This document shows, one piece after another, positions 17,908 to 30,841 of a DNA stretch of 64,000 bases. Under the pieces are notes generated by a model. That model was not told the DNA's origin and ran no database searches. It saw only the letters and a list, made by a program, of their open reading frames with translations. Each line of letters begins with the position of its first letter. Positions within the stretch are counted from its first letter, which is position 1. The DNA is taken from the NCBI GenBank assembly GCA_902525435.1, contig CABZHD010000003.1, forward strand, positions 39,827 through 103,826. The letters run 5' to 3'. The stretch is from an uncultured SAR86 cluster bacterium (GTDB taxonomy: Bacteria > Pseudomonadota > Gammaproteobacteria > Magnimaribacterales > AG-339-G14). A program made the translations under genes and the position numbers.

Positions 17908-18044
17908 AAAAGAAGGGAGTAGATTAGAGAAAGATAGAGGAAATGTCTAATGTTTTTATTAAAACAAAAATGCTCTTTTTTAGAGCAATTTGCACTATTT
18001 TATTTCTAATATAATCTTTTTTGTTAATCTATTGGGAGGAATTA

Positions 18045-19253
18045 ATGGATTCTGGAAATACAGCGTGGATTCTTACATCCACAGCACTAGTTTTGTTCAT
18101 GACTATGCCAGGTTTAGCACTATTTTATGGCGGTCTGGTTAGGTCTCAAAATATTCTATCGGTATTAATGCAATGCTTTGCGATTGCTTGCTTGGCTTCT
18201 TTTGCATGGTTGTTTATGGCATACAGCATAGCTTTTTCCGAGGGATCTCCTTATTTTGGGGATTTAAATCAAATGTTCTTGATGAATATGGCAAGAGATA
18301 GCCTTTCTGGAGATATTCCAGAATCTGCATTTTTTATGTTTCAAATGACATTTGCAATTATTACTCCAGCATTAATTGTAGGAGCTTATCCTGAAAGAAT
18401 TAAATTCAGTTTTGTAATAGCTTTCTCATTTCTCTGGATTTTATTTGTTTATGCGCCCGTAACACATTGGATATGGGGTGGCGGCTGGTTGGCAGAAATG
18501 GGAGTTCTAGATTTTGCCGGAGGCTTAGTGGTGCACTTAACCGCTGGAACCACGGCGCTGATTCTAGCTTTCCTATTAGGACCCAGAGAGGGTTTTCCCA
18601 ATCAAATAAAACCTCCTCATAATCCTGGGTTAACTATGATGGGGGCTTGTATGTTGTGGGTTGGTTGGTTCGGCTTTAACGGTGGTAGCGCGCTCGCTGC
18701 AAACCAAGATGCAGGGATGGCCATACTTGTAACTCATATTTCTGCTTCTGTAGCATCTTTGGTATGGATGTTCATTGAATGGATTAAATTCGGAAAACCT
18801 AGTTTGGTTGGAATAGTAACAGGATCAATTGCAGGTCTAGCTTCAATTACACCTGCATCAGGATTTGTAGGCCCTATAGGAGCGGTCATTATTGGTTTAG
18901 TGTCCGGTTACCTTTGTTACGTTGCAGTTGGATTTGTTAAAAATGCCCTAAAAATTGATGACTCACTTGATGTATTTGCAGTTCATGGTCTTGGAGGAAC
19001 TTTGGGAATACTTTTATTGCCTTTCCTAATTGGTTCAAATCTTGGAGGAGTTGGTCTTTCTGAAGGTCAGACTGTCATGAGTTTTTTCAATACTCAACTT
19101 ACAGGCACAATTAGTGTTTTAATTTTCACTGCGATTATGACAGTGATAATTGCTTTGATCCTAAGATCGTTCTTTGGTTTAAGAGTAGATGATGATCAAT
19201 TGGAAGAAGGTTTAGACCTATCCTCTCACGGTCAATCCGGATACAAATTATAA
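18045..19253 (+). CDS. amt: Ammonium transporter (Amt family)
   Basis: MDSGNTAWIL..., DFAGG.VVH and GFNGGS motifs. I chose the ATG at 18045, preceded by GGGAGGA, over the TTG at 18021 used by the track. No glnK gene is adjacent. Confidence 0.9.
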   Translation: MDSGNTAWILTSTALVLFMTMPGLALFYGGLVRSQNILSVLMQCFAIACLASFAWLFMAYSIAFSEGSPYFGDLNQMFLMNMARDSLSGDIPESAFFMFQMTFAIITPALIVGAYPERIKFSFVIAFSFLWILFVYAPVTHWIWGGGWLAEMGVLDFAGGLVVHLTAGTTALILAFLLGPREGFPNQIKPPHNPGLTMMGACMLWVGWFGFNGGSALAANQDAGMAILVTHISASVASLVWMFIEWIKFGKPSLVGIVTGSIAGLASITPASGFVGPIGAVIIGLVSGYLCYVAVGFVKNALKIDDSLDVFAVHGLGGTLGILLLPFLIGSNLGGVGLSEGQTVMSFFNTQLTGTISVLIFTAIMTVIIALILRSFFGLRVDDDQLEEGLDLSSHGQSGYKL

Positions 19254-19260
19254 ATTTTTA

Positions 19261-19935
19261 TTAAACAGGCAATGCATTAGAGATAGCTTCAAGGAGCGGT
19301 CTCTGATGCGCTTGCTTAGTTTTTGCATAATGAGGATGACCTAAACTAGCTAAATCTTCTGCTTTCTCCATTATTCTTTTTTCAAAATCGGAAGATGATG
19401 CTATTTCATCAAGTAGTCCGGCCTCAATACACTTGTCAAAAGGATAAGGATCAGCATGATAAAGAACAGAGTAAACATGCTTTTTATCGATTCTGCTTTC
19501 AGCAACTTCCATAATAGGAGAAGGAATATCCATATTGTTTCTAACTTCGTTTGCCTGAGCAACAAATTCCCCTTCTAGAGCTATGCGATAGTCTCCGCAA
19601 CAAACAATAAAAATTCCCATGGCAATTGCATGCCCTGTAACAGCCATAATTATTGGTCTAGGAAAAGTATATAGATCATGCATAGTTTTCATTCCTAAAG
19701 CAGTCATTTTTTGTGCCTTTTTCGCATCTCCACTTTGAAATGTTTTGAGATCAAATCCTGCTGAAAAAATGCCTTCTCTTCCTCTTATAATTAATGCACC
19801 ACTATCTTTGGAAACTTGATCTAGACAATTTTGTATAGATTCAAGCATTTCTAATGAAAAGACATTTACCTTCCCATCATCCAATGTAATAGTTGAAATA
19901 TCTCCTTCTTTGCTAAGGATTGCTGGTTCACTCAT
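19261..19935 (-). CDS. Enoyl-CoA hydratase/isomerase (crotonase) family protein
   Basis: Crotonase fold pattern (FSAGFDLK oxyanion-hole segment, GHAIAMG). Specific reaction unknown. Confidence 0.7.
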   Translation of the reverse strand: MSEPAILSKEGDISTITLDDGKVNVFSLEMLESIQNCLDQVSKDSGALIIRGREGIFSAGFDLKTFQSGDAKKAQKMTALGMKTMHDLYTFPRPIIMAVTGHAIAMGIFIVCCGDYRIALEGEFVAQANEVRNNMDIPSPIMEVAESRIDKKHVYSVLYHADPYPFDKCIEAGLLDEIASSSDFEKRIMEKAEDLASLGHPHYAKTKQAHQRPLLEAISNALPV

Positions 19936-19951
19936 TTTTTCCTCCTGAAAA

Positions 19952-20533
19952 TTATATTAAATCACAAGCTGCGGGCGGCATCCAATGGGCGTCTTTGCCA
20001 TCCCACTTTATATTACATCCAATTGGGTTGGTAACTGGAACTGAAATGATACTTCCTCTTAGATAATCATCAATTGCATTTTCCAAATCGTTTATTGTTG
20101 ATTCAGATCCATTTCTTGGATTATCAATTCCTCTTCCTGTATAAATCAATGATCTGTTGGAATCAAAGACAAAAAAATGAGGAGTTTTTAGAGCTCCATA
20201 ATTAGTTGCAGTCTCTTGAGATTCATCGTGAAGATAGTCCCAGGGGAATTGATGCTCTTGCATTCGAATTTGCATATTCTCAAAACTATCTTCTTCATAG
20301 GTATTTTTACTGTTCGAATTGATACATACCAACTTGATGCTCTCTCGATTGTACTTTTCAACAGTTTTGCGAGTGGTTTCATCGGAACCAATTACATAAG
20401 GACAATGATTACAAGTGAAAGAAATTATCAATAACTTATATTCACTGTAACTTGCTAGATCATGAAACAAGTTGTCAGTTCCAAGAAGATTAAAATCTGG
20501 AGCTTTGTTGCCTATTTCTAATGTATAAGCCAA
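19952..20533 (-). CDS. Thioredoxin-fold (AhpC/TSA / redoxin-like) protein with CNHC motif
   Basis: APDFNL...SFTCNHCPYV redox motif and a conserved C-terminal GCNIKW segment. Confidence 0.65.
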   Translation of the reverse strand: MAYTLEIGNKAPDFNLLGTDNLFHDLASYSEYKLLIISFTCNHCPYVIGSDETTRKTVEKYNRESIKLVCINSNSKNTYEEDSFENMQIRMQEHQFPWDYLHDESQETATNYGALKTPHFFVFDSNRSLIYTGRGIDNPRNGSESTINDLENAIDDYLRGSIISVPVTNPIGCNIKWDGKDAHWMPPAACDLI

Positions 20534-20540
20534 AGTAATA

Positions 20541-21458
20541 TCAAGTCAGCGGGTTAAAGGATATTTTTTCTGGAATGTCATCTGCACCGGGCATATTTTT
20601 AGCAATCATGAACGGTCTTAAAGCCTCTATAGCTTTTGGTTCATCGTGATGACAAATTTTTGGATACATATGATGCATGATATGAATTTGCATTGAATGA
20701 TTTAAAAACCTAGGTAATCCGTTTCTCCAGAATCTTGTATCGCTATGTCTTCCAATTTCGAGCCCATTATGAGGCTCTCTTGAAAAAACTAATCCTAAAT
20801 AAGAAGTGATAATCTTTAATGGAAGCCACCACAAAAAAAGAGTTTCCAAAGGAAAAAAGAAAGCCGTAACCATTTGCGTTAAAACAATGAATAATTGAAC
20901 CATAGATCCTCTATCTATGCTTTTTTTGAATTCAGGATCTTTGTCACAATAGTCATTAACCATTTTTTCTATCCTTTCATCTGATCCCTGATTATGAACC
21001 CTCAAAGCTGCTTCAAACCATGAGTCAACATGCGTATGGAAGTAATCAGGGTCCTTTTCAGGATCATTTGTGTGAGCGTGATGTTTCATATGAAGAACTT
21101 TTAATAGTTCATGAGATCTTGCTAAAGGAATCAAGGAAATCTGACCCACAAAAGAATTAACCCACTCAAGGTTCTTATGGTTCCCTGATAGATGTCCGTG
21201 TTGGCCTGCATGAGATGGCAAATAGGCAAAAGATGTAGAAATTAGAGATATGAAAAAACCTAACCATAATGGAATAGTTGATGAAATAACTAAATACCAG
21301 ACAAGACACCATACAAAAAATTGCGTAAAGGCAATAACAATCATTTCCCACTCTATTCTTCCCATAAAAGCTCTAGCTATTTCTTTTTCTTGATCATGAG
21401 AAAGTTCAGAGGATTGGTAATCGTACATCTGGCTATCGGTCATACTATCCAGCCCCAT
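20541..21458 (-). CDS. Membrane fatty-acid desaturase family di-iron enzyme
   Basis: Three His boxes (HAGQHGH, HMKHHAHTN, HIMHHMYP) and TM helices. The start is uncertain because in-frame ATGs at 21443 and 21428 would reduce or remove the overlap with the upstream small ORF. Confidence 0.7.
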   Translation of the reverse strand: MGLDSMTDSQMYDYQSSELSHDQEKEIARAFMGRIEWEMIVIAFTQFFVWCLVWYLVISSTIPLWLGFFISLISTSFAYLPSHAGQHGHLSGNHKNLEWVNSFVGQISLIPLARSHELLKVLHMKHHAHTNDPEKDPDYFHTHVDSWFEAALRVHNQGSDERIEKMVNDYCDKDPEFKKSIDRGSMVQLFIVLTQMVTAFFFPLETLFLWWLPLKIITSYLGLVFSREPHNGLEIGRHSDTRFWRNGLPRFLNHSMQIHIMHHMYPKICHHDEPKAIEALRPFMIAKNMPGADDIPEKISFNPLT

Positions 21459-21658
21459 TTTTTATATTTAGCTAACAAGCCAAAAAGGAACCCAGTCAGA
21501 TAACTGGCTACAGTAAAAAAGAGTTCATTTTTTGGTTCAAAAAAGTAAATGGTTGCAGCATTAAAAACACTGCCAAAAAAAACAAACGCAAATAAAACAA
21601 TAAACCATTGCTCTATTATTGAAATTTTATCCTCTGTTTTTGAAGATTTTTCATTCAT
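21440..21658 (-). CDS. Hypothetical small membrane protein (72 aa, 2 TM helices)
   Basis: Open frame directly upstream of, and overlapping, the desaturase gene, with two hydrophobic helices. No recognisable motif. Confidence 0.4.
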   Translation of the reverse strand: MNEKSSKTEDKISIIEQWFIVLFAFVFFGSVFNAATIYFFEPKNELFFTVASYLTGFLFGLLAKYKKWGWIV

Positions 21659-21750
21659 AACAGTTTTATTTTACTAACAGAAATTAAATAAATATATATT
21701 TAAGACCTAGATTAGCTTGGATCATCCTAATTAGAGAATATAATTTATCT

Positions 21751-22980
21751 ATGGATTATGTAGCTTATGCTGTCCCATTTTTCCTTCTCCTGATAGTTCT
21801 CGAGTTAGGTTATGGTTTTTTAGTAAAAAAAAATAATTATCGAATCTCCGATACATTAACAAGCTTATCTTTAGGTTCAATCAGTCAATACGTGCCAATT
21901 TTAAAATTGGGCTTTCAGGGAGCTGTATTTGCTTTCATCGCGGACTATTTTAGCTTGCCTTTGTTATCCAGTTCTTCATGGATAGTCTGGGTTGTAGCTT
22001 TTATTCTTTATGACCTTTGCTATTACTGGTTCCATAGGATGCATCATGAAGTTAAAATTTTTTGGGCGAGTCATGTGGTTCATCATCATGGGGAAGAATT
22101 CAATTTCTCTACAGCCCTAAGACAAACTAGTTCAGGTTTTTTGTGGAGCTGGATTTTCTACATACCTCTATTTATTCTTGGCATTCCTCCTGAGGTTTTT
22201 ATCACTGTTGGATCTCTAAATCTTATTTATCAATTCTGGGTTCATACTGAACATGTAAAAACTATAGGAATTTTCGAGTACATATTAGTAACTCCCTCAA
22301 ATCATCGGGTGCATCATGCTCAGAATGAGGAGTACATCGATGCTAACTACGGAGGAGTATTTATATTTTGGGACATTATTTTTGGTACTTTTATAGAGGA
22401 AAAAAAAGAAGTGAAACCAATCTATGGAACAGTCAAGCCCTTAAATAGCTGGAATCCAATTAAGGCTAATATAGATGTGTATTGGTTGATTTTAAGAGAC
22501 TCTTTTGCAACTAAAAGATGGGAAGATAAATTTAAGGTGTGGTTCTCAGATGCCAGATGGAGGCCAGATGATGTTTCAGAAAGATTTCCAGTTCAAAGAA
22601 ATGACTTATCGTCTTTTGTTAAATACGATCCAAAATTAGACGTTTTACAAAAAATTTATGCATTTTTTCAAATCTTTAGCCTAATAATTATTCCAAATTT
22701 CATTGTCTCTGACTTAGATAAACAGACTTATTTTCAATCTTTAATTCTTATTGGTAACACGGTACTTTTTATTACTTTCACTTTGATGTACTTGGAAGGA
22801 AAACAATACGCTTTGTGGATGGAATCTATCAGATCAATATCTTTTATTATTCTTATTTTCTTCGGAGTGATTAAATTAAGTCTCCTCTCGGTTCAAATGT
22901 CAGGAATACATGCTCTTGTTTGTCTTTTATATTTAGCAATTGCTTTGCCTTTGAGAATCACCAAATTCCAATCTGCCTAA
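21751..22980 (+). CDS. Sterol desaturase / fatty-acid hydroxylase superfamily protein with an extra C-terminal multi-TM domain
   Basis: His boxes HRMHHE, HVVHHHGE and HRVHHAQN in the N-terminal ~230 aa. The C-terminal ~170 aa is hydrophobic and unassigned. Confidence 0.7.
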   Translation: MDYVAYAVPFFLLLIVLELGYGFLVKKNNYRISDTLTSLSLGSISQYVPILKLGFQGAVFAFIADYFSLPLLSSSSWIVWVVAFILYDLCYYWFHRMHHEVKIFWASHVVHHHGEEFNFSTALRQTSSGFLWSWIFYIPLFILGIPPEVFITVGSLNLIYQFWVHTEHVKTIGIFEYILVTPSNHRVHHAQNEEYIDANYGGVFIFWDIIFGTFIEEKKEVKPIYGTVKPLNSWNPIKANIDVYWLILRDSFATKRWEDKFKVWFSDARWRPDDVSERFPVQRNDLSSFVKYDPKLDVLQKIYAFFQIFSLIIIPNFIVSDLDKQTYFQSLILIGNTVLFITFTLMYLEGKQYALWMESIRSISFIILIFFGVIKLSLLSVQMSGIHALVCLLYLAIALPLRITKFQSA

Positions 22981-22984
22981 GTTT

Positions 22985-24991
22985 TTAGTGTGTTATCCAG
23001 ATTGGAGAAGACCAAGCTCTTTCCTGAATTGTTGATTTTATATCTGATCTAGGAAGTTGATTACTTCTAATTGCGTCCCAAGTAGACCATCTGCAAACTG
23101 GGTTTTCTAAAACTCTAACGTAATAAAAGGCTTCCTGATCTTCAATAAATTCTGGATCTTTCCATAAAGTTTTTAGCTCCCTAGAGCCCTTATTTTTGGA
23201 GATAGAGCAATCATCCAAATTAACTTTTGCACCATTGTCAGGACACCTATGAGATGATTTGTCTACTTCCAATCCATCGCTACAGGTCGCGTCATAGACC
23301 TTCTCTTTAGATTCTCCATTATCGAGCCAACCCTTGATTATTTGTACTCTCTGTAAGTTTGTACCTTGGGCATCAGCCATCGCCCATACAAGAAAGATAG
23401 GAGACTTGTCCTTCTTGGTTTTGAGGCTACCTCCCATTGTCGTAGCTGTTTCATAAAGGTAAGCAGTAGTATTTTCTTTGCTGAATGCATTCTCAATGTC
23501 ATATCCAGCAAAAAATCTAATTTTTATTCTTGGTCCGCTAGTTGCAAAAGTTTCCTTTCTTTTAAATGCATTAAAGATTGACTCTCTTGTGTTCTCTTCA
23601 GCCCATACTCCTGCAAGGCCGGAAGCGCTCCAGCTAATAAGCCTACTGCTGCCTGCGAAATAATCTTTTTCATCAACCTCTGCAATTAAATTTGGTCTTA
23701 GGACTTTCAATACGGATCCATAAGTCTTATTGAAAGGAATAGATCCCCTGAGTTCAGGTGTTCCATCGAGAATACCTATTTTTGAAAAGTATCTATCTTC
23801 TTCGAAAGATGATGCAGATACATGAGTATCAGTTGACCCAATAAAACCAAATTTATATGGATTGACACCACTTTTGTTTTTCAAAGCCATGCCTCTTAAC
23901 AAGGCACTTCTTGTATAACTCCCTTCATCATTATCTGCTGTATTTTCAATTTCAAAATCAGCCCACTCATCATTTTTTGATAAGAAGGGACTCGTCTCTG
24001 AGGAAGCTTTCACTTGAGTTATTTCAACAACAGGCTCATTACTTATTCTCTTTCTGCTATAAGATTCATCTATTGGAGCGCCATTAAAATCATCTAGCAT
24101 AAACATTAAGCCTCCAGAGAGATTAGAATTATGAGGTATGGCCATGCTCTCAACTCCATTATCTCTCAGAGAATCCATCCAATCCCATAACTTTTCTGGA
24201 TTCGGACTATCCATTCTGCTGAAGGGCATTAATGGTAAATTTTTAGTATCCTTGAAAATAACGTTTCTATGCAGTGTTGTAAGGTCTGCTCCGCTACCTG
24301 CCGAGTATTCGTAACCAGCAAAAGTAGTCAAAACTCCTGGTTCATAGGCTCTATCAGCAGCCTGAATAATATCCTGCCAAACACTACTGGAAATCTTATT
24401 TAATTCATCGGTAAGATCATTGGTAAGATCATTGGTAAGTCTTCCCTCTTCTGCGAGCCTCTGGGCAAAAGGTCTAAAGAGGTTAGATCTCCTGATAACC
24501 TCAAATATGCCTGCACCCGCTGAATCATTTAAATTATGTAATGGTTTCACCCAATCATATTTAGACAAAAAAGAATTTTCGTCACTTGCGGTTTTCATCA
24601 CTCCTAAAAATATCCCGTGATCAGTAACCGCATAAAAATCTAAAGGTCTCTTAAGCTGGATTTGATATCCAGATGGATGAGGTAAAGCAGCTCCCCGAGC
24701 ATAACGATATGCATCATCTGGAGAATTAATATTACCGAATGAGTAAGAATCAAAAGAATTAGCCGTGTGAACGTGCAGATCCCCAAAATAGGCATTTTTA
24801 TCAGGATTTTTCTCTCGTCTTTCATTAGTCTCATACTTCATGGAAGATTGTTGTTTTGAGAAAATATCGTCTATTTTTTCTATAGTTTTTTTAGTCTGCC
24901 TCTCTTGATATTGATAAGAAATAAATATGATTAAAACCAAGCTAAAAGTAATTCCTACGATCCAAAAAAATGATTTTTTTAAAATACCCAC
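22985..24991 (-). CDS. DUF3604 domain protein (PHP-like metal-dependent hydrolase fold), N-terminal membrane anchor or signal
   Basis: YFGDLHVHTANSFDSY near the N-terminus and a size of ~670 aa are characteristic of DUF3604 as I recall it. Confidence 0.65.
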   Translation of the reverse strand: MGILKKSFFWIVGITFSLVLIIFISYQYQERQTKKTIEKIDDIFSKQQSSMKYETNERREKNPDKNAYFGDLHVHTANSFDSYSFGNINSPDDAYRYARGAALPHPSGYQIQLKRPLDFYAVTDHGIFLGVMKTASDENSFLSKYDWVKPLHNLNDSAGAGIFEVIRRSNLFRPFAQRLAEEGRLTNDLTNDLTDELNKISSSVWQDIIQAADRAYEPGVLTTFAGYEYSAGSGADLTTLHRNVIFKDTKNLPLMPFSRMDSPNPEKLWDWMDSLRDNGVESMAIPHNSNLSGGLMFMLDDFNGAPIDESYSRKRISNEPVVEITQVKASSETSPFLSKNDEWADFEIENTADNDEGSYTRSALLRGMALKNKSGVNPYKFGFIGSTDTHVSASSFEEDRYFSKIGILDGTPELRGSIPFNKTYGSVLKVLRPNLIAEVDEKDYFAGSSRLISWSASGLAGVWAEENTRESIFNAFKRKETFATSGPRIKIRFFAGYDIENAFSKENTTAYLYETATTMGGSLKTKKDKSPIFLVWAMADAQGTNLQRVQIIKGWLDNGESKEKVYDATCSDGLEVDKSSHRCPDNGAKVNLDDCSISKNKGSRELKTLWKDPEFIEDQEAFYYVRVLENPVCRWSTWDAIRSNQLPRSDIKSTIQERAWSSPIWITH

Positions 24992-24998
24992 TTAATTT

Positions 24999-26645
24999 TT
25001 AGTTTGACCAGTAAATGTAGTCATCTCCCTCTTCATATTTTTGTCCATCGTATTTATCAATGAGGATTGGAACTTCATAGGCGGATGGTATGACAGGATC
25101 AGCTTGTTCTAAATTAAATTGATCCAATAGACTTTTTAGAAGTTGTGCTTTTTTAGGATGAGATTCTATAAGATTGTTCTTTTCAGTGGGATCAACAGAA
25201 GTGTTAAAAAGCCAGTGAAAATTTTCTTTTTTACTTACGATGTATTTCCAATTTTCATGCAATACAGATTGATGATTTCCTGAGCGCCAAAAAAGTGTTT
25301 TATGCGGTTCAGTGGATATTTCTTTATTTATGAAAGATAGAAGATTAACGCCATCCAAGTTACTTTCTTGAGAAGGTTCTATGCCAGCAGCTGAAGCAAT
25401 TGTAGAAAAAATATCAAAATGATGGACGGCGGCATTGGATTTTTGTCCTGGATCTATTATGTCAGGCCAACTAACAATATAAGGAACTCTTATTCCGCCT
25501 TCAAAAAAGCTTATTTTCCAGCCTCTGTAAGGCTTATTAATATCTTCTAACTCAATATAATCGGCTCCACCGTTATCGCTTGTAAAAATAATTAAAGTTT
25601 TACCATAAATCTCAAGTTCCTTAAGTTTTGCAATAACTTTACCTACGCTGCGATCTAGCGCAGTAATCATTCCTGCATAAACCTGTAAATTATGCCCTTC
25701 CATATGGCTCATATTCTGCACATCACTTCTCAATGCCTGCAGAGGATTATGAACTGCCCAATGACTTAAATATAAAAAAAACGGTCTGTTTTTATTTTTT
25801 TCAATAACTTTCAAAGCTTCATCAGTATAGTAATCGGTTACATATTTATCTGGAGCAAAAAAATCGCCTCCATTAAACATTGCTGAATACAGCCCAATGC
25901 CCCAAATCATTCTATCGATTCTGGTATCAAACTTTGCATTTACAATTTCTGGGTCATCTTCTGGGGCATACAGAGGTCCTATTAGGGATAAAGAATCTTT
26001 AAATCCTTGGCTTTGCGGATCCATGCCATTGGCTTGACCAAGATGCCATTTTCCTATGTGAGCTGTGTAATATCCTGCATCACGAAGAACCTCTGCAATT
26101 GTTATTTGCTCGGTTGGCATACCTTGTTCCCATAAGGGGGGTAGCCGAGTGGCTACTTCTCTATCAATTCTAGCTTTAAGTTCTGAGTCATCCTCTTCAG
26201 CAAGCCATCTCATGATTAATCTTCCAGTTGCCGGCACTGGAGTGAATTCATACCCAAACTTTGTTGGATATTTCCCAGTCATGATGGATGCTCTTGAAGG
26301 AGCACAAGTAGCATTCGCGGCATATCCTCTTGAAAAGAGAATGCCATTTTCTGCTAATGAATCAATATGAGGCGTCATCAAAGAGCCATCTGCTGCACCG
26401 CCGTTATGGGCAGAAATATCGTTGTATCCCAAGTCATCAGCCAAAATTAAAATAATATTAGGACGATCATCTTGTGTAGGTGTTTCAGGTCCCTCCGTCC
26501 AAGTGGTTGGAATGTTATCCTGCACTGGCATAAAAATAGCCGCTAATTTCGGTATGGACCAAATTAATATATTTATTTTAAATTCCCAAGCTGTGACGCC
26601 TAGTATGGCAAGAAGGCTTAAAGTGATTAAAGATTTCCTAAGCAT
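24999..26645 (-). CDS. Arylsulfatase-family sulfatase (formylglycine type), secreted
   Basis: Sulfatase signature CAPSRASIMTGKYP, DDLGYND and GKWHLG motifs. Confidence 0.9.
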   Translation of the reverse strand: MLRKSLITLSLLAILGVTAWEFKINILIWSIPKLAAIFMPVQDNIPTTWTEGPETPTQDDRPNIILILADDLGYNDISAHNGGAADGSLMTPHIDSLAENGILFSRGYAANATCAPSRASIMTGKYPTKFGYEFTPVPATGRLIMRWLAEEDDSELKARIDREVATRLPPLWEQGMPTEQITIAEVLRDAGYYTAHIGKWHLGQANGMDPQSQGFKDSLSLIGPLYAPEDDPEIVNAKFDTRIDRMIWGIGLYSAMFNGGDFFAPDKYVTDYYTDEALKVIEKNKNRPFFLYLSHWAVHNPLQALRSDVQNMSHMEGHNLQVYAGMITALDRSVGKVIAKLKELEIYGKTLIIFTSDNGGADYIELEDINKPYRGWKISFFEGGIRVPYIVSWPDIIDPGQKSNAAVHHFDIFSTIASAAGIEPSQESNLDGVNLLSFINKEISTEPHKTLFWRSGNHQSVLHENWKYIVSKKENFHWLFNTSVDPTEKNNLIESHPKKAQLLKSLLDQFNLEQADPVIPSAYEVPILIDKYDGQKYEEGDDYIYWSN

Positions 26646-26712
26646 TTTGAATTAGTGATCTTTGAGAAAATATAAATTATGACAGTAATTGTGTCAAAAG
26701 ATTCTTAGGAAT

Positions 26713-26758
26713 TTGGTGGGTCTGGCAGAACTCGAATCTGCGACCTCACCCTTATCAG
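26713..26758 (-). repeat. Orphan copy of the tRNA-Ile(GAU) 3' half (att-like direct repeat, distal copy)
   Basis: ttggtgggtctggcagaactcgaatctgcgacctcacccttatcag is identical at 46/46 positions to 29761-29806. No 5' half of a tRNA follows it. Confidence 0.9.
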
Positions 26759-26780
26759 TAGTGAGAACTATCTAAAAAAC

Positions 26781-26803
26781 CTTATAATATCAATACTCTC
26801 AGA
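26781..26803. repeat. Left terminal inverted repeat of the island (23 bp)
   Basis: CTTATAATATCAATACTCTCAGA matches the reverse complement of 29733-29755 (CTTATAAAATCAATACTTTCAGA) at 21/23 positions. Confidence 0.75.
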
Positions 26804-26810
26804 CTAGTAA

Positions 26811-26829
26811 TGTGCACGAGTGTGTGCAT
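26811..26829. repeat. Paired TGTGCA(C) palindromic motifs, left end of the island
   Basis: TGTGCACgagtgTGTGCAT. Both motifs are centred on the GTGCAC/TGCA palindrome. The counterpart lies at 29683-29700. Confidence 0.6.
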
Positions 26830-26865
26830 GATGTTGAAACATTATTTTTCAAAAATATAGACATT

Positions 26866-27192
26866 TCATGATAGCAATTTAAGTATTTGTTTTTTATTTT
26901 TTTCACCAAATTTTTGATATTGATTAATAATCCCTGATAGTGATTTACCAAAATCTGTTAATGAATATTCAACCCTTGGCGGAATAGTTTGAAAATCATC
27001 TCTATGAATGAGATTGTGACTTTCTAGTTCTCTTAACTGTTTAGTAAGCATTTGCTCTGTGATCGGAGACAGAGTTCTTTTTAATTCACCAAATCTTTTG
27101 GGTCCAGACTGTATGGTATACATTAATGGCATTTTCCATTTGCCACCAATAAGTTTAGTAACCTGGTGAATTGCACAATAATTGTCTTTCAT
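26866..27192 (-). CDS. HxlR-family winged-helix transcriptional regulator
   Basis: 108 aa, with CAIHQVTKLIGGKWKMPLMY...GPKRFGELKR matching the HxlR-type HTH pattern. Transcribed divergently from the doxX-gst-pirin genes. Confidence 0.85.
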   Translation of the reverse strand: MKDNYCAIHQVTKLIGGKWKMPLMYTIQSGPKRFGELKRTLSPITEQMLTKQLRELESHNLIHRDDFQTIPPRVEYSLTDFGKSLSGIINQYQKFGEKNKKQILKLLS

Positions 27193-27197
27193 AAATT

Positions 27198-27251
27198 TTG
27201 TACTATGTTATTAGTTAGTACTCAATTATTAATTAGTACTTGTTATTTTCA
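27198..27251. promoter_or_regulatory. Three tandem imperfect 18-bp units with GTAC cores in the hxlR/doxX divergent promoter region (candidate HxlR operator)
   Basis: The units are TTGTACTATGTTATTAGT / TAGTACTCAATTATTAAT / TAGTACTTGTTATTTTCA. GTAC cores lie at 27200, 27218 and 27236, an exact 18-bp phasing. AGTACT is itself palindromic. Confidence 0.5.
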
Positions 27252-27295
27252 TTGTGAAAAATATTATACACAGATTCAATTAAAGGAGAATAACT

Positions 27296-27688
27296 ATGAA
27301 TAAATTAAATGAATATATTGACCAAGTTTCTTTTGTAGGACCATGGTTGCTTAGAATTACTCTTGGTGTATCTTTTTTCTTATATGGATTCGGTAAGTTT
27401 CCTTTGCCATCAGAATTATTGCTCAGTTTTGGATTCTCTCAGTTTGTTGCTGTATTAGTTCCTCTTGTTGAGGTAATTGGTGGTATTGGAATAATTCTCA
27501 CTGGTTTTATAAGTGGATTGTGGGGTCAATTATTAACACGCGCATTGGGTTTGGTTTTATCAGTATTAATGATTTTTGCTCTTGTTCTTGCGCATTCTGA
27601 TTGGTTAATAAATGCAGAACTTTTTAAAAATATACAGGTTTACTTACTTGTCGTATCTTTACACTTTGTTTTTAAACCAAAAGGTTAA
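27296..27688 (+). CDS. DoxX family membrane protein
   Basis: 130 aa with four TM helices and the LLRITLGVSFFLYGFGKF pattern typical of DoxX. AAAGGAGA Shine-Dalgarno upstream. Confidence 0.75.
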   Translation: MNKLNEYIDQVSFVGPWLLRITLGVSFFLYGFGKFPLPSELLLSFGFSQFVAVLVPLVEVIGGIGIILTGFISGLWGQLLTRALGLVLSVLMIFALVLAHSDWLINAELFKNIQVYLLVVSLHFVFKPKG

Positions 27689-27705
27689 ATGAATAGGAGA
27701 TAACT

Positions 27706-28635
27706 ATGGGTAAACTAATTGAGGGTGAATGGATAGTAAAATCCATTATTACATCAGACGATTCAGGTGCATATGATCGCCTACCAAGAACTTTTTTAGA
27801 TACTATTGAGAAAGGCCATGAAAAATTTCAACCAGAGTTAGGTCGTTACCACTTGTACGTTAGTTACGCATGTCCATGGGCTACTAGAACTTTGATATAT
27901 AGACAACTTAAAGATCTTAACGATCACATAAGTGTCAGTGTTGTTCATCCAGATATGCTCGAAGAGGGATGGGTATTTGACACAAGCTTTCCTGGTGCTA
28001 CTGAGGATCATCTATATGGCAAGAAGTTTTTAAGAGAGATATATCAGAAAGCAGACCCAACAATTACCACCAGCGTTACTGTACCAATACTGTGGGATAA
28101 AAAAACTGAAACAATTGTTAACAATGAATCTTCCCAAATAATTAGAATTCTGAATACTGCATTCAATGATTTAACTGGCAACCATAATGATTACTACCCC
28201 GAAGATAAAAGAGAATTAATAGATGAACTGAACGATATCATCTATGACAGCGTGAACAATGGCGTCTATAAGTCAGGCTTTGCTCTTTCCCAAGAGGCTT
28301 ATGATAATGCTGTTTCAAAACTGTTTGAAACACTTGATTTTCTCGACAATAAACTAAGCAAAACCAAGTTTCTAATTGGTGATGAAGTCACAGAGGCTGA
28401 TTTAAGGCTGATTCCAACGCTATTAAGATTTGATCCTGTTTATGTCACCCATTTTAAATGCAATATTAGACGAATCATGGACTACAAAAATTTATATAGA
28501 TACATGCAAGACATGCTAAAAATACCTGCAGTAAAAGATACTTGCGATATTGATCACATTAAACGTCACTACTATTACAGTCACGATCAAATCAATCCAT
28601 ATCGTATTATTCCTCATGGACCAATTGAATTATGA
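27706..28635 (+). CDS. Xi-class glutathione transferase / glutathionyl-hydroquinone reductase (YqjG/ECM4-like)
   Basis: GRYHLYVSYACPWATRTLI contains the Cys-Pro-Trp-Ala active-site motif of GS-hydroquinone reductases. ~310 aa. AGGAGA Shine-Dalgarno upstream. Confidence 0.8.
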   Translation: MGKLIEGEWIVKSIITSDDSGAYDRLPRTFLDTIEKGHEKFQPELGRYHLYVSYACPWATRTLIYRQLKDLNDHISVSVVHPDMLEEGWVFDTSFPGATEDHLYGKKFLREIYQKADPTITTSVTVPILWDKKTETIVNNESSQIIRILNTAFNDLTGNHNDYYPEDKRELIDELNDIIYDSVNNGVYKSGFALSQEAYDNAVSKLFETLDFLDNKLSKTKFLIGDEVTEADLRLIPTLLRFDPVYVTHFKCNIRRIMDYKNLYRYMQDMLKIPAVKDTCDIDHIKRHYYYSHDQINPYRIIPHGPIEL

Positions 28636-29444
28636 GTAAAATGATAATTCCTGCATACGAAACCTCCGATGGTGCAGGAGTTAAAATTTTTCGCAGCCTT
28701 GGACAAACCCAAGATGTTCGCCTTGACCCATTTTTAATGTTAGATGAATTCTGCTCTGACAATCCAGATGACTACATTGGTGGATTTCCTTCACATCCAC
28801 ATAGAGGGTTTGAAACATTCACGTATATGATTGAAGGACATCTACAACATGAAGATAGTATGGGCAATAGTGGTGAACTAAAGTCGGGTGAAATGCAATG
28901 GATGACAGCAGGTAGAGGCATTATTCACTCAGAGATGCCATTGCAAAAAAATGGTCTAATGAAGGGTTTTCAGTTATGGGTTAATTTACCTGCAAATGAA
29001 AAAATGCAAAAACCAAAATATAGAGATATAAAAAAAAATGAATTCATTGATTTATTTGACGGTTCAACGCAAATTAAACTAATTGCAGGCGAGTACAAAG
29101 GTCATACTGGACCAATAAGCGGCCTAACTACTGAATTAGAATATTTTGACATTAATATTTCAAAAGAAAATTTTAAGTTTTACGGTAAAAAAAATAAAAA
29201 TTATTTTATATATCCATTTGAAGGAGATCTGATAGTTGATAATGAAGTGGTCCCAAAAAGGACAGGCATGAAATTTACTGAAACCGTGTCAATTTTATCT
29301 AGAGAGAATCAGGCAAGATTTCTTCTAATTGGAGGGAGGCCAATAAATGAATCAATTGCTCAATATGGACCTTTTGTAATGAATACAAAGAAAGAGATTA
29401 TTGATGCGATGAGTGATTATCAGAAGGGCTATTTTAATTATTAG
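28632..29444 (+). CDS. Pirin family protein (bicupin)
   Basis: GFPSHPHRGFETFTYMIEGHLQHEDSMGN is the pirin metal-binding His/Glu motif. The ATG overlaps the upstream stop (ATGA). Confidence 0.85.
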   Translation: MSKMIIPAYETSDGAGVKIFRSLGQTQDVRLDPFLMLDEFCSDNPDDYIGGFPSHPHRGFETFTYMIEGHLQHEDSMGNSGELKSGEMQWMTAGRGIIHSEMPLQKNGLMKGFQLWVNLPANEKMQKPKYRDIKKNEFIDLFDGSTQIKLIAGEYKGHTGPISGLTTELEYFDINISKENFKFYGKKNKNYFIYPFEGDLIVDNEVVPKRTGMKFTETVSILSRENQARFLLIGGRPINESIAQYGPFVMNTKKEIIDAMSDYQKGYFNY

Positions 29445-29480
29445 TTCTTTTATAAACTTTAAAATTAATAGGAAGTGATT

Positions 29481-29600
29481 ATGGAATGTGGTTGTGGAAG
29501 AAGTCCAACGGGCAAATGTATCGGTTGGCATAAACTGTCAGAAGAAGAGTATCAAGAAAAGTTAAAAGAATATCAAGATAAAGAAAAAGAAGAAGATTAG
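29481..29600 (+). CDS. Hypothetical 39-aa Cys-rich protein
   Basis: Hand translation gives MECGCGRSPTGKCIGWHKLSEEEYQEKLKEYQDKEKEED. An AGGAAG Shine-Dalgarno lies ~6 nt upstream. The pattern is C3, C5, C13, H17 followed by a charged helical tail. Below the ORF-track cut-off, and I cannot confidently name a family. Confidence 0.4.
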   Translation: MECGCGRSPTGKCIGWHKLSEEEYQEKLKEYQDKEKEED

Positions 29601-29682
29601 AAGTTATAGAAACTTAAAATCATTTAAAGAAGTTTATTTGAACTTCTTTTCAAAAAGTTAACTATGATTAGTAAGTTTTTAG

Positions 29683-29700
29683 TGTGCACAGGTGTGCACA
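29683..29700. repeat. Paired TGTGCACA palindromes, right end of the island
   Basis: TGTGCACAggTGTGCACA: two perfect 8-bp palindromes with a 10-bp period. The pair could instead fold as a 6-bp hairpin followed by atatcTTTTT, i.e. a possible terminator. Confidence 0.6.
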
Positions 29701-29732
29701 ATATCTTTTTAAGAAAGGAGATATACCCACAC

Positions 29733-29755
29733 TCTGAAAGTATTGATTTTATAAG
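29733..29755. repeat. Right terminal inverted repeat of the island (23 bp)
   Basis: TCTGAAAGTATTGATTTTATAAG is the reverse complement of 26781-26803 at 21/23 positions. It lies 5 nt from the att-like repeat. Confidence 0.75.
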
Positions 29756-29761
29756 ATTTAT

Positions 29762-29838
<77 letters not shown>

Positions 29839-29890
29839 ATATGAAATGGAATGCAACCTTAGCAAGCTATTATCAATAAATAAAGTTAAA

Positions 29891-30841
29891 TTAATTATCA
29901 GAATCCCTCCTTATGACATAAGGACGGTTTTTATTCGAAAAGTAAATTCTGACGACCACTTCAGCCAATAAACCGGTCGTTAAAAGTTGGGTTCCAAACA
30001 CAACAGAAAGTATTCCGCCGTAAAAAAGAGGTCTGTCGCCTAAGTCTATGCCAAGCATAATTTTTTGGGCGCTTAATACAAATAAGATAATTATTCCAAG
30101 AACCAAAAAAACTAAACCGGGAAAACCAAAAAAGTGCGCTGGTTTAGATAAAAATCTTTGGAAAAATATAATTGAAAATAAATCTAAAGGTACCCTAGCA
30201 ATTCTTCCAAACCCATATTTGCTCTCGCCAGCAATTCTAGGTCTATGATTTACCACCTCTTCGCTTATCCTTGCCTTATCAGTATAAAGACTCATCCAAG
30301 CAGGAATTAACCGGTGCATTTCGCCGTACAGTTGAACTGCTTTGAGAGTTTTATTTCTGTAGACCTTTAAGCTACATCCGTAATCATGGAGCTTTATATC
30401 AGTCGACCAGCCAATTAAAGAATTTGCCACCTTTGATATGAGACTTCTAAGAAAAGGATCTTTTCTATCTTTTCTCCATCCAACAATTAAATCCAATTTT
30501 TCATCTTTCAGCCTATTCAAGAGTCTTAAAATATCCTTCGGATCGTTTTGAAGATCACCGTCCAAAGTTGCTATGTATTTTCCTTGCAGGTGATCAAAAC
30601 CTGCTTGCATTGCAGCTGTTTGCCCTGAGTTCCTTCCTAATTGTAGGTACCTGACTTCTTTTTTTACTTTGGCAATTGATTCACATATATCTCCAGTATT
30701 ATCTTTGCTTGAATCGTCAACAATGAGTAATTCCCATTCTTTGTCTAGAGATTCCATCGATTGATAAATCTCATCGACGAGAGGTTTTATATTTTCTTCC
30801 TCGTTGTAAACAGGAACAACAATGCTTAAATAAGTTTTCAT
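29891..30841 (-). CDS. Family 2 glycosyltransferase, polyprenyl-phosphate sugar transferase type (ArnC/GtrB/DPM1-like) with two C-terminal TM helices
   Basis: SIVVPVYNEEENI, the DD.S.D motif, DGDLQNDP (DxD) and a C-terminal TM pair, which is the typical ArnC/GtrB architecture. Confidence 0.8.
   Translation of the reverse strand: MKTYLSIVVPVYNEEENIKPLVDEIYQSMESLDKEWELLIVDDSSKDNTGDICESIAKVKKEVRYLQLGRNSGQTAAMQAGFDHLQGKYIATLDGDLQNDPKDILRLLNRLKDEKLDLIVGWRKDRKDPFLRSLISKVANSLIGWSTDIKLHDYGCSLKVYRNKTLKAVQLYGEMHRLIPAWMSLYTDKARISEEVVNHRPRIAGESKYGFGRIARVPLDLFSIIFFQRFLSKPAHFFGFPGLVFLVLGIIILFVLSAQKIMLGIDLGDRPLFYGGILSVVFGTQLLTTGLLAEVVVRIYFSNKNRPYVIRRDSDN

Follow-up and report, generated by a model that had tools for sequence, protein, structure and literature searches.

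Conserved ends of a recombinase-less gene unit at tRNA-Ile(GAT) in the SAR86 cluster: candidate sites for mobilisation in trans

We report a gene unit of 3002 bp inserted at a tRNA-Ile(GAT) gene in a 64,000-nt stretch of DNA (hereafter the window) from an uncultured bacterium of the SAR86 cluster (assembly GCA_902525435.1, contig CABZHD010000003.1, positions 39,827 to 103,826). The two ends of the unit carry a 23-bp inverted repeat (IR) and a doublet of tandem 8-mers, and these motifs are probably the cis-acting recombination ends (attL/attR) of a miniature cassette that is specific for the SAR86 tRNA-Ile(GAT) and has no recombinase of its own. The best reading of this unit and its relatives, as judged from their sequences, is that they are att-flanked integrative cassettes mobilised in trans. 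We favour this reading because the insertion is precise and is found in unrelated hosts, because units are stacked in tandem, because the ends keep a common layout around different cargo and because there is no recombinase in cis.

The SAR86 bacteria are among the most abundant heterotrophs of the surface ocean and have small, streamlined genomes in which classic mobile elements have rarely been reported; a comparison of SAR86 genomes anchored on isolates, from 2024, makes no mention of islands, integrases or tRNA sites. Cassettes which cross between unrelated lineages at >99% identity, with some 270 nt of non-cargo DNA, would represent a very economical route for the exchange of flexible genes, and the family bears on the question of how gene islands arise in streamlined marine bacteria. 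Its cargo ranges from genes for redox and quinone detoxification to restriction-like nucleases, with metal-handling genes in units that have other arms at the same site. Furthermore, the conserved ends provide a sequence signature for finding members of the family and the missing recombinase, and the host-type repeats described below offer a mechanistic test of classic att recombination against something else.

Architecture of the two ends

The features of the two ends and of their target, in the numbering of the window, are these:

26759-29760, whole inserted unit, 3002 bp (left arm, five-gene cargo, right arm); absent from the sister genome L005, with a precise junction
26713-26758, minus strand, left direct repeat, a displaced copy of the 3' 45 nt of tRNA-Ile(GAT) plus 1 base; identical to 29761-29806 and adjoining the host flank
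26759-26780, plus strand, junction spacer of 22 nt, TAGTGAGAACTATCTAAAAAAC; its length is common to all family members and 15/22 columns are invariant
26781-26803, plus strand, left inverted repeat (IR-L), from a repeat search and a mismatch scan of the window; family core AATCAATRCTYTCA
26810-26829, plus strand, left tandem 8-mers ATGTGCAC (26810-26817) and GTGTGCAT (26822-26829), 12 nt from start to start
29682-29699, plus strand, right tandem 8-mers, GTGTGCAC twice (29682-29689 and 29692-29699), 10 nt apart; terminator-like on the plus strand
29700-29732, plus strand, spacer of ~32 nt from the right doublet to IR-R, with an AT-rich hairpin at 29701-29724; length constant within one base across the family
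29733-29755, minus strand, right inverted repeat (IR-R), 5-6 nt from the tRNA CCA end in every family member
29762-29838, minus strand, intact tRNA-Ile(GAT) (ARAGORN; Rfam, 72 bits), the 3' 45 nt of which (29762-29806) form the right direct repeat

IR-L reads CTTATAATATCAATACTCTCAGA and the reverse complement of IR-R reads CTTATAAAATCAATACTTTCAGA, the two matching at 21/23 positions and lying 22 nt and 5 nt, respectively, inside the 46-bp direct repeats, which bears out the positions and offsets given for this repeat in an earlier note on the same DNA. In the repeat search the pair extends to arms of 30 nt (26774-26803 and 29733-29762) that are 87% complementary and make up the longest inverted repeat within 26600-29900. 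With up to three mismatches allowed the motif has two copies only in the window, and 0 are expected from 100 shuffles. The doublets read TGTGCACgagtgTGTGCAT at 26811-26829 and TGTGCACAggTGTGCACA at 29683-29700; the two GTGCAC-centred copies already reported at each end are thus present, and within the 64 kb TGTGCAC is confined to these two doublets. By a generous test, with one mismatch and a distance of 9-13 nt allowed, a tandem 7-mer pair common to both arms arises in 184 of 20,000 shuffles (~0.9%). A search of the window gave no other tRNA-Ile fragments and no other family motifs. A 10-nt deletion in the right arm of one natural copy (L154) takes away one of the two right 8-mers (window 29682-29699), and the doublet is not, then, strictly maintained in all copies.

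The direct repeats at 26713-26758 and 29761-29806 are identical and comprise the 3' 45 nt of tRNA-Ile(GAT), a segment that starts with the first base of the anticodon loop and finishes at the CCA end, and one flanking base; the unit lies in the 3' part of the gene and the direct repeat restores the tRNA. Some other copies of the insert have point mutations in the displaced repeat, which there resembles a pseudogene. At the junction there is an inverted symmetry around TTATCAG of the anticodon loop, with CTCAC towards the tRNA and GTGAG towards the element, the corresponding pair within the tRNA itself being CACCC/GGGTG. Core-type half-sites of tRNA-targeting tyrosine integrases are usually arranged in this way, and the mirroring of CTCAC by GTGAG across TTATCAG suggests a core-type half-site within the 22-nt spacer.

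The extent of the element-specific DNA can be read from contigs in which the five-gene block (26866-29600) occurs at 95-99% identity; there are many of these with no tRNA, IR or doublets, and in them homology ends within the last codons of the outermost genes, hxlR and a 41-aa open reading frame (ORF). The DNA specific to the element is therefore 26759-26865 (107 nt) and 29601-29760 (160 nt), 267 nt of non-cargo DNA in total, a length too short to accommodate a decayed integrase gene.

The TATAAT inside the IR was considered as a promoter and rejected: promoter-like sites in the region number 16 where shuffles give 14.9, which is the level of chance, and in relatives the place is occupied by TTTAAA or TATAGA.

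Empty sites and transfer between lineages

The host of the window is a gammaproteobacterium of the SAR86 cluster, and a single-cell contig (L001) that is 97.8% identical over 20.8 kb carries the same insert. The GORG single-cell assemblies GCA_902570595.1 and GCA_902616535.1 contain the island. Orthologous loci were sought through the neighbouring GT2 gene, a search which returned two SAR86 loci, the rest being distant GT2 genes, and those two supplied the empty site: the sister genome L005 is alignable on either side of the unit, and what it lacks is precisely 26759-29760 with one copy of the repeat. Many more copies of the island were obtained by looking up its proteins in public assemblies. 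In a second lineage (B) the tRNA-Ile that harbours the same insert is flanked by a UPF0259 gene on one side and a Zn-peptidase/GFA/MFS block on the other, neither of which can be aligned with the window, and in a third (C) the site is empty, with precise junctions, in L243 and L251 and occupied in L242 and L245. The host tRNAs differ too, that of the B type having GGTGG/CCACC in the T-stem rather than the GCAGA/TCTGC of the A type and an extra A in the D-loop, with 6/46 positions of the repeat different between the two. The 3002-bp inserts of A-type and B-type hosts are, by comparison, 99.4-99.7% identical, which equals the closeness of copies within one host type. Such identity across non-homologous flanks requires that the unit was transferred recently into another genome, where it entered the tRNA at the identical base.

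This transfer bears directly on the view that the unit is the dead remnant of a once autonomous, integrase-bearing island, a cis-mobilisable element (CIME) whose motifs are relics and which has spread by vertical descent and homologous recombination. The absence of an integrase gene from the unit agrees with that view, and elements of such a decayed, att-flanked kind commonly stand in tandem with others at tRNA sites (PMC5704250; 10.1101/2020.12.28.424599). Homologous recombination is also in evidence, since one A-type host (L149) carries a B-like variant of the insert along its whole length, by which allele exchange between resident copies is indicated. A relic is, however, difficult to reconcile with the near-identity of a 3-kb insert across unalignable flanks and differing tRNAs, which requires recent transfer, with the variation in presence and absence within each of the three lineages, where the junctions are always precise, and with the existence of at least five cargo variants with compact arms and no pseudogene debris. 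We regard it as very unlikely.

A feature of the transferred copies that classic att recombination does not predict is the origin of their repeats. Both direct repeats are of the host type in all A-type (n=3) and B/C-type copies, despite inserts that are 99.4-99.7% identical; an attP circle that jumped between lineages would be expected to leave one repeat of the foreign type and none was found, a result whose weight is limited by the small number of underlying transfers. The informative sites allow one or two jumps between lineages followed by homologous exchange between resident copies, and a rare core swap, for which integration must cross over at one end of the identity block and excision at the other, could explain the host-type repeats. 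Target duplication or heteroduplex repair would explain them directly, and each belongs to a rival account of the unit.

In the first of these, a transposase-like or Cas1-like enzyme acting in trans recognises the subterminal IRs and makes staggered cuts at the ends of the tRNA 45 nt, the repeats being a target-site duplication. Repeats that are always host-type, around the same insert in A-type and B/C-type hosts, are exactly what this account predicts; the IRs near both ends and the subterminal tandem sites resemble the ends of a transposon, and an integrase is absent from every unit. Nevertheless, a duplication of 45 nt is, to our knowledge, far above that of any known transposon or casposon, and its limits, the start of the anticodon loop and the CCA end, are those of the standard tRNA-restoring identity block of tRNA-targeting tyrosine integrases. 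The left IR lies 22 nt inside the junction rather than at its terminus, the CTCAC/GTGAG symmetry around the anticodon loop is typical of core-type sites, and one or two cross-lineage events with homologous exchange suffice for the host-type repeats. In our judgement the account is improbable, to the same degree as that of a dead remnant.

Heteroduplex repair enters through the proposal that RecA-type recombination between the 45-nt tRNA repeats alone moves any DNA that lies between them, the arm motifs being irrelevant. Repair during homologous integration could indeed give two host-type repeats, and there are integrase-less units with unrelated arms and the same 45-nt repeat (L262, L265, L266 and L270). 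Against this, 45 nt with the 6 mismatches found between the lineages is a very poor substrate for homologous recombination, and the proposal leaves unexplained both the origin of the first pair of repeats and the presence of IRs and tandem sites at base-exact spacing around different cargo. It is the least probable of the alternatives that we consider.

The neighbourhood of the target is itself variable. The interval from tRNA-Ile to tRNA-Ala is 11.9 kb in the window (17908-29761), 1.4 kb in L004 (L004:11081-12465) and 6.2 kb in L005 (L005:11081-17325) among these close relatives, and L004 is without the sulfatase and DUF3604 genes that stand beside the island in the window.

A family of units with common ends

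The 67-kb scaffold L158 carries, in order, tRNA-Ile, a mini-element of 0.54 kb with two tiny ORFs, a tRNA repeat, the five-gene unit, a further repeat and the host flank. The arms of the mini-element are ~80% identical to those of the window unit and have the same layout. At the left end this runs repeat, 22 nt, IR, 6 nt and two 8-mers 12 nt apart, and at the right end two 8-mers 10 nt apart, ~32 nt, IR, 6 nt and repeat. Among the window unit, the mini-element, L162, L163 and the 6.5-kb unit of L245, each of which has a different cargo, the layout varies by no more than one base, and the same is true of a hybrid (L167). The family includes, besides this hybrid, right-arm variants (L162 and L163) and the 6.5-kb relative of the third lineage (L245/L250), whose cargo comprises Mrr- and HNH-nuclease genes and several unknown ORFs; the IR core conserved across it is AATCAATRCTYTCA. 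The 8-mers of three of the units are as follows:

Window unit: left ATGTGCAC and GTGTGCAT (GTGTGCAC-like); right GTGTGCAC twice
Mini-element (L158): left GTATGCAC twice; right GTATGCAC twice
L245: left TGTTCAAA twice; right CTGTGTAT twice

The four 8-mers of the mini-element share one strand, so that the doublets of the two ends are direct repeats of each other where the IRs are inverted. Between the window unit and the mini-element all four have changed together (GTGTGCAC against GTATGCAC), without compensatory pairing. The left period of 12 nt and the gap of 6 nt from IR-L are common to the mini-element (GTATGCAC twice) and the 6.5-kb relative (TGTTCAAA twice), and the right period of 10 nt is kept in all relatives. 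The emphasis that the earlier note laid on palindromes does not survive this comparison: since the 8-mer changes from member to member (GTATGCAC twice at both ends of the mini-element, TGTTCAAA and CTGTGTAT, each twice, in L245) and is not a palindrome in all of them, the palindromy is peculiar to the window 8-mer and incidental, and what is conserved is a tandem site of fixed period and position.

The same pattern is central to the question of whether the doublets and the right-spacer hairpin are terminators or insulators for the cargo only, with the IRs incidental and no recombination site present. The right doublet (TGTGCACAGGTGTGCACA and ATATCTTTTT) is called as a terminator on the plus strand, downstream of the last plus-strand gene; it folds at -10.3 kcal/mol and is followed by a T-run in every variant, and each set of motifs is found downstream of a gene that reads outward. 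Termination at the right doublet is accordingly a respectable reading, compatible with the data. It extends less readily to the other sites. The left doublet, on the hxlR strand, folds weakly (-6 kcal/mol, z = -1.4) and has no T-run; the 41-aa ORF is already served by a hairpin and T-run at 29626-29651; and in the doublet of the mini-element 2/7 stem pairs are broken without compensation, a weaker wobble hairpin of -5.9 remaining. Independent terminators would have no reason to share one 8-mer at both ends of a unit and to change in parallel at four sites, nor to keep an exact spacing to the IRs and tRNA repeats whatever the cargo. Sequence-specific recognition would fit the 8-mer pattern better than independent terminators, and we consider it unlikely that termination or insulation of the cargo accounts for the ends as a whole. 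The right-spacer hairpin can form in each variant; compensatory changes in it, apparent by eye, were rejected, as in a fixed register no pair is changed on both sides.

Conservation of the motifs above the surrounding non-coding DNA, which had been put forward as a check on their function, was found in part. In alignments of the arms 58/78 motif columns (74%) are invariant against 45/84 spacer columns (54%; Fisher p = 0.009), and changes within the arms fall mainly in the spacers. For the arms as a whole, set against synonymous sites, the evidence is mixed. In L107, a copy diverged by 5.5%, the left arm differs by 6.5%, compared with 22% at the third codon positions of hxlR and ~19% in the hxlR-doxX spacer. 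In the comparison of the window with L163, by contrast, the arms are 11.5% and 6.9% divergent and no better conserved than third codon positions (4.9-15.7%).

Other units occur at the same site. In L163 (L163:1-535) the 5' half of the tRNA does not follow the tRNA-side repeat; in its place come other sequence and a gene that contains DUF4116-like repeats. As another unit lies between the island and the tRNA, L163 is an array. Integrase-less units with the same 45-nt tRNA-Ile repeat at their borders and unrelated arms are found at L262:9503-13372 and L266:1204-3623 and in L265 and L270; their cargo includes PepSY_TM, CsoR-like repressor, MerT-like and HMA genes, and the tRNA-adjacent arm of L262 and L270 has a tandem 9-mer of its own, AGTGCTACA twice. 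The tRNA-Ile(GAT) gene appears to be a general hotspot for integrase-less units in SAR86.

Proposed mechanism, known systems and cargo

In the mechanism that we propose, attL and attR would join in a circle into one attP of ~310 bp, with the predicted junction ...TATAAGATTTA, the 45-nt tRNA segment and TAGTGAGAACTAT..., and a recombinase supplied in trans by a helper element, a phage or the host would exchange strands at the anticodon loop. The stem halves CTCAC and GTGAG would act as the core sites and, if the analogy with lambda-type attP holds, the 8-mer pairs of the two arms as arm-type or directionality-factor sites, while the 23-bp IRs, one on each side of the core, may be bound by a bending or bridging protein or by the recombinase itself. 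The earlier assignment of the motifs to a recombinase and accessory proteins (arm-type, Xis/IHF-like) is strengthened in that the architecture of the ends is kept across cargo; the particular proteins are inferred, and the match to integration host factor (IHF) is at the level of chance.

Several observations weigh against this mechanism, to which the host-type repeats, the divergence of the L163 arms and the possible terminator role of the right doublet must be added. The AATCAAnnnnTT in the IR is no more than a lead as an IHF site, the consensus occurring 22 times in the window against 26 expected. The family amounts to some five independent arm variants; L245 has left 8-mers unlike its right ones, and the 2-kb relative in L242 is partly decayed in appearance and has no clear doublets. 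No recombinase or excisionase was identified in any search made. Pfam found no recombinase gene among the five ORFs of the window insert, Pfam and PHROGs gave no recombinase match for the units of the relatives, unknown proteins included, and none was found in the units with unrelated arms (L262, L265, L266 and L270). A regular-expression screen for tyrosine-recombinase motifs, a weak test, flagged none of the window ORFs of >=150 aa. The genes beside tRNA-Ile are GT2 (window) or UPF0259, neither of them a recombinase, and loci anchored on UPF0259 in four further SAR86 lineages yielded only empty sites and integrase-less units.

Nor was a circular form seen. An exact pattern for the attP-form junction (IR-R, then IR-L 55-85 nt downstream) has 0 matches in metagenome contigs; forms of this kind seldom survive assembly. 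The IR pattern has 0 matches in viral contigs and 35 in metagenome contigs, of which 34 are chance occurrences in unrelated sequence and one (L107) is genuine. In viral contigs the family-level pattern has 0 matches and a looser one 67, all by chance in coding DNA, and a tRNA-Ile fragment pattern finds only phage tRNA genes and one unrelated serine-integrase prophage end. The reconstructed attP, by BLAST against phage records, retrieves only a phage tRNA-Ile gene. The earlier interpretation finds support in part. That the recombination sites are intact though the recombinase gene is absent agrees with the precise insertion, the cross-lineage copies, the common layout of the ends and the lack of a recombinase in the unit, but no recombinase, excisionase, circle or attP came to light. 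The search of related genomes and metagenomes that was then recommended does show the IR and 8-mers recurring at SAR86 tRNA-Ile with other cargo, but with no integrase alongside.

As a side observation, the unrelated, low-GC viral contig L235 (L235:1-1524) has an ORF for a large serine recombinase of 507 aa which runs into the 3' end of a tRNA-Ile(GAT) at the end of the contig; it is probably a prophage with the same tRNA as its attachment site.

A broader proposal, which we make tentatively and rate well below mobilisation in trans as such, is that tRNA-Ile(GAT) of SAR86 represents a cassette-capture platform serviced in trans, a functional counterpart of the integron without a linked integrase, at which small cassettes that lack a recombinase, each with a structured site of ~310 bp in the order tandem 8-mers, IR, tRNA-like core, IR and tandem 8-mers, are inserted serially and exchanged between distant lineages by an enzyme of host, phage or satellite. 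Rather than by classic attP x attB recombination, such an enzyme might work by target duplication or on a folded single-strand substrate and so rebuild the two 45-nt repeats from the tRNA of the host.

The ends may be compared with several known systems. The attP sites of lambda, P2 and HP1 have inverted core half-sites around a 7-nt overlap, arm-type tandem repeats and sites for bending proteins. The SAR86 units are alike in their inverted half-sites around a 7-nt overlap (here the anticodon loop), in the short tandem repeats that both arms carry 50-125 nt from the core, at a period of about one helical turn, and in a site in between, on each arm, at which a protein might bend the DNA; they differ in that this intervening element is a 23-bp IR pair with no recognisable IHF sites and in having no int or xis. 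Integron cassettes (attC) are also small and recombinase-less, each with one structured site of imperfect inverted repeats, and are captured serially at a fixed chromosomal site; in the SAR86 units the IR pair would flank the core in a circle, and one array has been seen (L158). When the reconstructed attP is folded as a single strand IR-R pairs with IR-L around the core (z = -6.5), as is expected of complementary IRs. In contrast to integron cassettes, the SAR86 units have no integrase gene adjoining the site, a tRNA target, a 45-nt duplication for each insertion and no R'/R'' core or attC motifs, and the cargo has its own regulator and divergent promoters.

Miniature inverted-repeat transposable elements (MITEs) and other non-autonomous transposons are similarly short, have IRs near both ends, are moved in trans and are sometimes almost ends alone, as is the 0.54-kb mini-element, but the SAR86 units have one tRNA gene as a strict target, a 45-nt repeat that restores the gene, subterminal IRs and no known parent transposase. 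When the units are compared with transposons with terminal inverted repeats and with casposons, the host-type repeats are the sole feature in favour; the IRs are set back from the junctions by 22 nt and 5-6 nt, the 45-46-nt duplication matches tRNA landmarks, and neither a transposase nor Cas1 was found in the window unit or the relatives examined.

The nearest named category is the CIME of streptococci and other Firmicutes, an att-flanked element without integration and transfer genes, found at the 3' end of a tRNA or other gene and moved by a recombinase that it does not encode, which is a decay product of an integrative and conjugative element (ICE) or integrative and mobilisable element (IME) and is mobilised in cis by an adjacent ICE or IME (PMC5704250). 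The SAR86 units share with it the attL/attR-type ends, the lack of integration and transfer genes and the tandem stacking at the 3' end of a tRNA gene. They depart from it in the absence of decay debris and backbone remnants, the compact arms of 107 and 160 nt that abut the cargo and the several cargo variants, the 0.54-kb unit among them; in the arrays seen (L158 and L163) the partners carry no integrase and there is no conjugative element in view. Tycheposons and related tRNA-targeting elements of Prochlorococcus islands (10.1101/2020.12.28.424599) also belong to streamlined marine bacteria and resemble the SAR86 units in their tRNA target, partial tRNA copies, tandem stacking and niche-adaptive cargo. 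Their hallmark is a tyrosine (rarely serine) recombinase, usually with a replication module, both of which are absent from the SAR86 units; the passages of that preprint consulted mention partial tRNAs and degraded fragments and do not describe a family of recombinase-less cassettes with conserved ends.

The cargo of the window unit, with the signal that follows it, consists of the following:

26866-29600, cargo cassette of five genes (Pfam)
26866-27192, minus strand, hxlR (Pfam HxlR)
27296-27688, doxX (Pfam DoxX)
27706-28635, YqjG-like GST (Pfam GST)
28632-29444, pirin (Pfam pirin)
29475-29600, Cys-rich ORF of 41 aa, no Pfam or PHROGs match
29626-29651, plus strand, AT-rich hairpin and T-run directly after the 41-aa ORF, fold -8.4 kcal/mol, z = -2.8; not present in L162, whose right arm is shorter; a probable terminator of the cargo itself

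The five-gene cassette is also carried by another vehicle, unrelated to the first, that lies close to glmS and the atp operon (L139:2040-9100; also L138, L142-L145 and L147). This consists of arrays of small gene groups separated by a repeat unit of ~190 nt with a hairpin, ACTACTCCACTGTAACGGAGTAGT, and GCCGGGGTTAAA...TATAACCCCCGC; the repeat unit contains no tRNA and has no Rfam match, and the arrays may be another cassette-array system in SAR86. The 41-aa ORF (MECGCGRSPTGKCIGWH...) accompanies the cargo in both vehicles, and its C-x-C...C...H pattern recalls metal-binding motifs of the SEC-C type.

More distant GST-pirin pairs, at 68-85% amino-acid identity (L119-L137), are ordinary chromosomal genes of other SAR86 lineages, located after recG or beside a short-chain dehydrogenase, and the motifs are absent from their loci; since the pair is core elsewhere in SAR86, the cargo of the island is a mobile copy of it. 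In L159 (7483-10666) the displaced tRNA repeat, IR-L, doublet, hxlR, doxX, GST and pirin are followed, at the pirin end, by a cold-shock-protein/H+-PPase context which in other SAR86 holds a 74%-identical GST-pirin pair, and L159 is either a chimeric assembly or the product of a replacement by homologous recombination between two GST-pirin copies. Lastly, differences at third codon positions between L107 and the window (26866-28578) are strongly graded, from 22% in hxlR through 13% in doxX to 3.4% in GST, which points to recombination within the cargo.

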